Part shown: positions 84 to 650 of the stretch, piece by piece | How the letters are laid out: every line of letters starts with the position of its first letter | Position numbering within the stretch: the first letter of the stretch is position 1 | NCBI RefSeq assembly: GCF_003334255.1 | Contig: NZ_QOWU01000155.1 | DNA length: 1,543 nucleotides | Source: Escherichia coli | GTDB lineage: Bacteria > Pseudomonadota > Gammaproteobacteria > Enterobacterales > Enterobacteriaceae | Strand: one strand, 5' to 3' | Program-made: the position numbers and the translations under genes | Notes under the pieces: generated by a model | The model's database searches: none | Seen by the model: only the letters and a program-made list of their open reading frames with translations | Told to the model about the DNA's origin: nothing

Positions 84-479
84 ATGAAGGGAACGAAAAA
101 CGCCTTTGGTTTAGGTTCTGCGCCTAATGGACAAAAAATTGGCGCTGCATCCATTGGTATTGACAGGTCTAATGGTGGGATTCACGCGGCGGACGATACA
201 GGTGAAATTCCTGTCGACCTGATTCAAACTGACCACTGGTCAGCAGCGCCCCCCACATGGAAAGCCTCATCTAATGGCGCATTCTGCTCGCTGACAAGTT
301 GCTCAGCAATCGAGCGCGGTTATTCTGTTGCAAAAACAGGGGAACTGACACCTGTTGCCATTACAGCGGTCACCTTCCCGTTACTGATTGATGCTGCGGT
401 AAATGACAATACTATTCTTGGTTCTGATGAAACGATCAAACTGGATGGTAACGTCACTATCAGCGTTCAGTATTTATAA
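84..479 (+). CDS. Hypothetical protein, 131 aa; possibly fimbrial-subunit-like, but no signal peptide detected
   Basis: ORF from the six-frame track. The ATG at 84 is the first start after the in-frame TAA at 60..62. GGAG at 66..69 is a possible RBS, though the 14-nt spacer is long. The protein is rich in Gly/Ala/Ser/Thr/Asn, has two close cysteines (CSLTSC) and ends in an alternating-hydrophobic strand with a penultimate Tyr (VTISVQYL), loosely like the C-terminal strand of chaperone-usher pilins. The N-terminus (MKGTKNAFGLGSAPNGQK...) is not hydrophobic and does not look like a Sec signal peptide. Confidence 0.55.
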   Translation: MKGTKNAFGLGSAPNGQKIGAASIGIDRSNGGIHAADDTGEIPVDLIQTDHWSAAPPTWKASSNGAFCSLTSCSAIERGYSVAKTGELTPVAITAVTFPLLIDAAVNDNTILGSDETIKLDGNVTISVQYL

Positions 480-650
480 GAACTTGTAATACAGTTTTTA
501 TTTTTACGCATTAACCAGTTAGCTATAACTCGGACAGATTATGCCCTATGACATGGTCTGTCTTAATCAATCTCATCGCAAACAGTGCATAACATATATT
601 AACAATATGTTTCTGCGTTATTTATCATTATTACAGGAGTTTTAATTTAA
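480..650 (+). promoter_or_regulatory. AT-rich intergenic region upstream of the chaperone gene; candidate promoter and RBS
   Basis: 171-bp non-coding, visibly AT-rich spacer. RBS AGGAG at 635..639 sits 11 nt before the ATG at 651. A candidate sigma70-like promoter is TTAACA (599..604), an 18-nt spacer, then TATCAT (623..628), but such matches arise easily by chance in AT-rich DNA. A short inverted repeat ATATT-AAC-AATAT lies at 596..608. Confidence 0.3.

Follow-up and report, generated by a model that had tools for sequence, protein, structure and literature searches.

Where does the message of a fimbrial subunit gene end when the genes for its chaperone and usher lie downstream? This question is raised by the spacer between gltF and yhcA in a 1,543-nt stretch of Escherichia coli DNA, hereafter the window, in which positions are counted from the first base and all features described lie on the plus strand. 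A first-pass annotation had drawn attention to an AU-rich hairpin followed by a run of T residues at 477-505, around the stop codon of an open reading frame (ORF1, 84-479). It proposed a weak intrinsic terminator or attenuator, of the kind by which a pilus operon may keep its subunit in excess of chaperone and usher, or alternatively the end of an upstream operon. We put the probability at roughly three in four that this hairpin, here HP1, is not the element that ends the transcript, and that the gltF message ends past a second, conserved hairpin further along the spacer, here HP2 (532-563).

The native chromosome in the window, a piece of the gltF-yhcA-yhcD pilus locus of E. coli and Shigella, extends from 77 to 1466: it begins with the last 403 nt of gltF, continues through the 171-nt gltF-yhcA spacer and the complete yhcA gene, and stops 121 nt into yhcD. 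It is flanked by two IS1 copies that point the same way. The right end of one copy occupies 1-76, is foreign to the native locus and truncates gltF, and the left end of the other occupies 1467-1543 and interrupts yhcD; native DNA matches only 77-1466, while the two ends match annotated IS1. In strain MG1655, gltF is 765 nt long (3361176-3361940), and its first 362 nt have been lost from the genome of the window. ORF1 is the in-frame remnant of this gene (77-479, with a TAA stop codon at 477-479) and not an intact gene. The yhcA gene (651-1325) is intact and encodes a PapD-type fimbrial chaperone of 224 aa. Its ribosome-binding site, AGGAG at 635-639, belongs to an ACAGGAG block conserved in the window and in three homologous loci (L004, L005 and L008). 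The usher gene yhcD starts at 1346, equivalent to 3362807 in MG1655, and is cut by IS1 after 1466.

The literature describes the gltF-yhcADEF cluster as a pilus locus of the beta class of chaperone-usher systems, found in phylogroup A E. coli; its chaperone is YhcA, its usher YhcD and its putative structural subunit the DUF1120 protein GltF (PMC5216030, PMC8174762). The pilus-operon context assumed in the first-pass annotation is correct in this respect, as ORF1 is the 3' part of the putative subunit gene of such a locus. We consider gltF to be more aptly described as the gene for the subunit of the yhc beta-fimbriae than as a glutamate-synthase gene, as earlier work has also argued. In the genome of the window, the locus is a remnant that has lost the 5' part of gltF and whose yhcD is cut by IS1, and both hairpins are probably vestigial there.

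The spacer region (430-660) was found by sequence comparison to be 100% identical to that of E. coli K-12 MG1655, so that 3'-end maps obtained in K-12 apply to the window. Adding 3,361,461 to a window coordinate gives the MG1655 coordinate; the gltF stop codon ends at 3,361,940, or window position 479. The spacer is present in 1130 of 5426 complete E. coli genomes, always with at least 99% identity. Two further candidate features of this region were set aside. A promoter-like match upstream of yhcA (TTAACA-18-TATCAT, 599-628) is unsupported: the promoter scan returned three sites, as against 3.8 in shuffled sequences, and the -35 part of the match is not conserved in L004. A 34-aa open reading frame at 541-645, which overlaps HP2, has no support and was treated as spurious.

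HP1 is present exactly where it had been reported. The stem consists of the pairs U477-A500, A478-U499, A479-U498, G480·U497, A481-U496, A482-U495, C483-G494 and U484-A493. The eight bases 485-492 form the loop, and the T-run, TTTTT, occupies 501-505. An optional ninth pair, A476-U501, extends the stem to 476-484 with 493-501 and the whole feature to 476-505. The description of an AU-rich stem of about 8 bp containing one G-U pair (G480·U497) is confirmed, and C483-G494 is the sole G-C pair. Folding assigned the stem -3.4 or -4.5 kcal/mol in isolation and -5.0 kcal/mol on local folding, and the segment 477-505 folded at -4.0 kcal/mol (z -1.6), with 12 of 200 shuffles as good. The stem is thus weak, as had been said, with a stability of -3.4 to -5.0 kcal/mol that is low by any of these calculations. 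When 470-510 is folded, an outer 3-bp helix (470-472 with 505-507) is added and the energy falls to -8.0 kcal/mol (z -3.2 to -3.9), the extended fold of 470-507 being matched by one to three shuffles per 200-300. The K-12 allele at 470-507 is locally more self-complementary than its own shuffles. This extended fold is not terminator-like, because the outer helix pairs part of the T-run, and about five distinct segments of the 1.5-kb window reach its z-score.

As a hairpin in front of a T-run, HP1 is unremarkable and at chance level. In 88 kb of related real DNA, 39 of the 186 runs of at least five T residues (21%) have a hairpin of -4.5 kcal/mol or lower directly upstream. A pattern-based terminator scan, which needs at least three G-C pairs, did not call HP1; HP2 was also left uncalled, and the only weak site that the scan reported lies inside gltF (300-316). 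HP1 resembles a canonical intrinsic terminator in that a stem-loop precedes a U run. However, such terminators have a stable, usually G+C-rich stem with a U-rich tract of about 7-8 nt directly 3' of it, whereas the stem of HP1 is AU-rich with one G-C pair in 8-9, reaches only -3.4 to -5 kcal/mol, is followed by a U-run of five and has no mapped end. The tail UUUUUACG contains 5 U in 8 bases, a short run that would lose bases to pairing if the ninth pair or the outer helix formed. Among the features of an intrinsic terminator, HP1 therefore lacks stability, a mapped 3' end and conservation, and shows the short U-run in part. The minus-strand reading of HP1 was also discarded: it folds at -3.1 kcal/mol (z -0.9), lacks a T-run and has no gene to terminate.

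The 3' ends of the gltF message were taken from RNAtag-seq data analysed by the TRS method (PMC10687069) and from the Term-seq tables of Adams et al. (PMC7815308). The TRS study lists a "Primary" gltF terminus with its dominant position at 3,362,027, which is window 566, and with peak boundaries at 3362024/25-3362032/33, corresponding to 563/564-571/572 (PMC10687069). The study also reanalysed older RNAtag-seq data, in which the terminus falls at 3,362,029, or window 568. The mapped K-12 terminus thus occupies 564-572 (PMC10687069, Supplementary Data 2 and 3), in a tail, UAAUCAAUC, that contains no U-tract. Its signal is 0.976, with adjusted p values of 0, 0.003 and 0 in three libraries. Since this statistic weighs the read starts at the peak against those beyond it, the value means that almost nothing is detected further downstream. 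The authors' own fold at the terminus is a hairpin of -17.3 kcal/mol with a maximal U-tract of 2 (PMC10687069). The terminus lies 61-67 nt past HP1 and leaves gltF with a 3' UTR of 87 nt (88 in the published table). Among the ends listed in the Term-seq and RNAtag-seq tables, none falls at window 501-510 (MG1655 33619xx), where the T-run of HP1 lies. The K-12 gltF message ends just after HP2 and not at HP1.

The Term-seq tables of Adams et al. give 3' ends after gltD at 3,360,660 and 3,360,783, and a bicyclomycin-sensitive, Rho-dependent end inside gltF at 3,361,307 (PMC7815308). From the latter it follows that Rho acts on the gltF transcript. The bicyclomycin table of the same study contains the site inside gltF but, among the ends listed, none at 33620xx. 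The end at 566 is also missing from the Term-seq tables, which show nothing at 33620xx among the ends listed; as it is found in the TRS tables and not in those of Adams et al., detection depends on the dataset. The locus has no entry in the SMRT-Cappable-seq tables, and a literature search found no described gltF terminator.

HP2 is a stem-loop of 12 bp, GGACAGAUUAUG pairing with CAUGGUCUGUCU, with an 8-nt loop (532-563), and is the structure found at the mapped 3' end of the gltF mRNA. It folds at -15.1 kcal/mol (z -3.95), a value that none of 200 shuffles equalled, and when both strands of the window were scanned, no other structure ranked above it. The tail, UAAUCAAU, has 3 U in 8 bases and a maximal U-tract of 2. 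In comparison with a canonical intrinsic terminator, HP2 has the stem but not the U-tract. It is a stable stem-loop without a U-rich tail, and the dominant end at 566 lies 3 nt after its last paired base (U563), as in protective 3' stem-loops. The next 100 nt of the window contain 17 C and 11 G, a mild bias, and C exceeds G in five of eight loci. A small 5-bp hairpin between HP1 and HP2 (AGUUA/UAACU, 517-530) is predicted at about -1.7 kcal/mol and is negligible; together, the three hairpins fold compatibly (-25.3 kcal/mol, z -3.9). HP2 and its flanks occur in exactly one place per genome in 1128 genomes and are unannotated, and this single-copy state rules out a REP-like dispersed palindromic repeat. 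A natural SNP, T554G, breaks one pair of the stem. An Rfam 15 scan of the window at permissive E-values returned three chance-level hits (E 2.4-7, far below gathering), none of them on 470-570.

Homologous loci provide a second view of the two hairpins. Relatives of GltF were grouped by identity into that of L004 (78%), those of the L005-L010 group (around 60%), that of L011 (54%) and those of the Kluyvera and Enterobacter mori loci L012-L014 (47-49%). Chaperone and usher genes lie downstream of the DUF1120 gene or genes in every homologous locus, and the locus adjoins gltD in each Escherichia-type locus long enough to show the upstream flank. When E. coli genomes were searched, the ~60% allele found no match and the 78% allele found only the K-12-type locus, at about 72% identity. 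As neither allele was found as such in E. coli genomes, both come from other Escherichia lineages.

The comparison shows that an HP2-like hairpin, as judged from predicted folds, is a structurally conserved feature of the subunit-chaperone spacer. In nine loci, representing seven lineages, the strongest hairpin of this spacer has a predicted energy of -15.1 to -22.2 kcal/mol, with z-scores of -3.1 to -4.8 against 300 shuffles, and ends 56-85 nt past the stop codon. The analogous hairpins of the lineages other than that of the window reach -18 to -22 kcal/mol. Most lineages have stems that are unrelated in sequence to one another, but the stems of the window and L004 are homologous. In the latter pair, 23 of 24 pair cells are paired (95.8%), with four compensatory and three one-sided changes, as opposed to 29-46% in slid controls. 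The covariation signal comes from two alignable sequences only, and its score is attained in 30 of 500 column shuffles. No within-species covariation test is possible, because all 1130 spacer-bearing E. coli genomes are at least 99% identical. A proper U-tract is found in none of the seven lineages, and none has more than four U in the first eight bases of the tail.

HP1 shows the opposite pattern. L004, which carries the closest allele, has lost four of the nine HP1 pairs without compensation, among them the sole G-C pair and the pair that closes the loop, and a C splits its T-run (TTCTTT). The stop-codon zone of L004 folds at -0.9 kcal/mol (z +0.35). In seven other lineages, 41-nt windows around the stop codon folded no better than shuffles (z -1.75 to +0.65), and an HP1-like structure was not found. 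Neither HP1 nor the sequence between the two hairpins shows conservation beyond the K-12 allele. In our judgement HP1 is a marginal structure that belongs to the K-12 allele alone and shows no sign of function; as a terminator it is not a real feature. The first-pass annotation was right that the message is punctuated after the subunit gene and wrong about the element: 477-505 has a weak stem with a single G-C pair, no end is called there and the stem is lost in the 78%-identical allele, and the mapped end (564-572) lies past HP2. An RNA 3' end does lie between the subunit and chaperone genes, and databases treat it as the end of the gltBDF unit.

How the end at HP2 arises is a separate matter. 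In E. coli, stable stem-loops without U-tracts, with the 3' end just downstream, are known as the steady-state ends of Rho-terminated transcripts (PMC6061677). HP2 resembles the Rho-dependent protective stem-loops described by Dar & Sorek in 2018 (PMC6061677) in being stable, in lacking a U-rich tail, in having the end 3 nt downstream and perhaps in the mild C-over-G bias. Its location is different, as it separates the subunit gene from the chaperone gene within a presumptive operon, whereas theirs is at the end of a gene cluster. We tentatively place HP2 in this class because the distance from stem to end is 3 nt, Rho is active inside gltF, C mildly exceeds G downstream and the locus is an AT-rich accessory one. 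The most likely role of HP2 would then be to protect the 3' end of transcripts that are terminated by Rho or weakly terminated.

In such a scheme, transcription that continues past the gltF stop codon would be ended downstream by Rho, or would leak past a poor intrinsic stop at HP2. Exonucleases acting in the 3'-to-5' direction would trim the RNA back to HP2, which would block them. The outcome would be a stable subunit mRNA with its 87-nt 3' UTR and little stable RNA extending into the chaperone and usher genes. Because the stop codon (477-479) lies inside the 5' arm of HP1, a terminating ribosome would mask this hairpin, which may weaken it further on translated messages. Rho termination combined with trimming is the specific route that we tentatively put forward for the end at HP2, as the likeliest single one but at slightly less than even odds.

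The rival that survives best holds that HP2 is a genuine intrinsic terminator poor in U-tract, at which polymerase stops around 570-572 without Rho, and that HP1 is irrelevant. HP2 is strong, the 3' ends mapped over 564-572 reach the distance expected for intrinsic termination, and with a signal of 0.976 there can be almost no read starts past the peak. Moreover, the equivalent hairpin of L005-L009 has an A-run upstream and a UUAUUUAU tail, and so resembles a bidirectional intrinsic terminator. However, the HP2 tail UAAUCAAU has 3 U in 8 and a maximal U-tract of 2, U-rich tails are missing from most lineages, and a dominant end merely 3 nt past the stem fits exonuclease trimming. We regard termination by HP2 itself as less likely than Rho termination with trimming, but as a serious alternative. 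An end at this position would also result if an endonuclease cut a longer transcript and HP2 then protected the upstream product, which we think unlikely.

Far less probable is the proposal that HP1 acts as a weak intrinsic terminator or attenuator that stops some polymerases at about 505-509 and so determines how far the subunit exceeds chaperone and usher. It is consistent with a stem directly followed by UUUUU and with the z-score of the extended local fold, and partial termination after a major subunit gene is documented for pap (PMC6524683). Weakly protected ends at HP1 could also escape steady-state mapping: the laboratory expression of gltF is low (a read-start density of about 0.05 in the CDS), and since an end protected by about -4 kcal/mol would decay quickly, minor termination at 505-509 could be missed. 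However, at -3.4 to -5.0 kcal/mol HP1 is weaker than every hairpin at the mapped termini in the part of the TRS table available to us, in which the weakest is -5.9 kcal/mol and most lie below -13 kcal/mol (PMC10687069). It was not called by the terminator scan, hairpins of its kind precede 21% of T-runs by chance, and the tables searched list no 3' end at its T-run. The closest allele has lost both stem and T-run, neither is present in the other lineages, and a terminating ribosome on the stop codon would be expected to occlude the 5' arm.

The least probable reading, that the whole 3' UTR (480-566) is a functional RNA, either a 3'-UTR-derived sRNA or a module for processing by RNase E to which HP1 contributes in some way unrelated to termination, agrees with the excision of FimR2 by RNase E from the fimA-fimI spacer (PMC9723502), with a read-start density in the 3' UTR at least as high as in the CDS (flagged as an outlier in one of three libraries) and with the compatible folding of the three hairpins, but the 3' UTR has no Rfam match, HP1 and the inter-hairpin sequence are unconserved beyond the K-12 allele, we found no report of an sRNA or 5' end for 480-566, and the table of PMC10687069 lists no transcription start site within 150 nt upstream of the gltF terminus.

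The reading that we prefer, in which the gltF message ends past HP2, makes the flagged hairpin of little importance and the nearby boundary an ordinary 3' stem-loop of a known kind. The K-12 3' end and its hairpin were already contained in a published supplementary table, and the structural conservation across beta-fimbrial loci is a small addition to it. AU-rich stems followed by T-runs in AT-rich spacers should be checked for stability and conservation before they are called terminators.

A partial terminator after a subunit gene has been described in another chaperone-usher system. In the pap operon, a terminator in the papA-papH interval lowers the amount of downstream transcript (Baga et al. 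1985, reviewed in PMC6524683). The order gltF (the DUF1120 subunit gene), HP2, yhcA and yhcD, a layout shared by all homologous loci, likewise places a stem-loop after a structural-subunit gene and before the assembly genes. The two differ in that HP2 lacks a U-tract, GltF is only a putative major subunit and, in K-12, the beta-class locus is cryptic or little expressed. By analogy with pap, HP2 would be expected, whether Rho or HP2 itself ends transcription, to leave more subunit message than downstream message. FimR2 (PMC9723502) is comparable to the gltF 3' UTR as a structured segment in the spacer after a fimbrial subunit gene, although no discrete small RNA, RNase E site or target was found for the gltF 3' UTR. 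A bolder proposal, which we consider a long shot and which draws on these analogies, is that the conserved spacer hairpin might be a dedicated and possibly regulated attenuator or stabiliser, and that the 87-nt 3' UTR of K-12, with HP1 and HP2, might accumulate as a trans-acting RNA in the manner of FimR2. If this were true, the hairpin would set the ratio of subunit to chaperone and usher in beta-class fimbriae.

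The native segment of the window lies between two IS1 ends (1-76 and 1467-1543) that share one orientation. With the initial 362 nt of gltF missing and yhcD interrupted after 121 nt, what the window carries of this chaperone-usher pilus locus is a remnant. Among complete E. coli genomes, none of 5426 showed this exact IS1-bracketed arrangement. Strain MB20 carries IS1 within yhcD at a site other than that in the window, and its gltF is intact.

The gltF-yhcA spacer may itself be an IS5 target. In a laboratory evolution study, an IS5 insertion in this spacer was common to all evolved clones (PMC8403718). 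In strain EC05, the IS5-family element ISKpn26 forms a junction with the spacer at approximately 485/486 (2587/2588 of locus L003), inside the loop of HP1, the weak AU-rich stem noted at the gltF stop in the first-pass annotation; this junction is accompanied by a deletion of yhcA and the start of yhcD.

Published Term-seq 3' ends place a bicyclomycin-sensitive (Rho-dependent) end inside gltF at MG1655 position 3361307, upstream of the native segment of the window, and two more after gltD, at 3360660 and 3360783. Taken together, these three ends indicate that co-transcription of gltF with gltBD is only weak, whatever the name 'gltBDF operon' suggests. For this operon, a candidate small RNA of 90 nt, the cis-antisense ECS0018, has also been reported (PMC3175480).

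HP2, the 12-bp hairpin of the gltF-yhcA spacer, is altered in strain Z1323PEC0013, where T554G disrupts the pair A541-U554; the surrounding 47-nt stretch contains a single difference in three further genomes. A 34-codon ORF (541-645, plus strand), which begins within HP2 and terminates shortly before yhcA, is unsupported and probably spurious. The second strongest local structure of the window lies inside yhcA, a 41-nt segment at 1021-1061 on the plus strand (fold -16.9 kcal/mol, z -4.0). Among the homologous loci, members of the approximately 60% allele group (L005, L006 and L008, at about 3299-3333) have a spacer hairpin with an upstream A-run and a U-rich tail, by which it looks like a bidirectional intrinsic terminator, and T>G and T>C variants within this group make the stem longer or stronger. 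The Kluyvera locus (L012, 1511-4224) contains three tandem DUF1120 subunit genes followed by a chaperone gene, the spacers between the subunit genes being structured, near-identical and 254-255 nt long.

L004-L011 are alleles of the entire subunit-chaperone-usher locus, with GltF identity of only 54-78%; those whose upstream flank can be seen sit at the same site next to gltD in other Escherichia lineages. The end of gltF and the spacer had no match in approximately 79% of complete E. coli genomes. Given such divergent alleles at one site and the large share of genomes with no match, the chromosomal site beside gltD appears to be highly variable.
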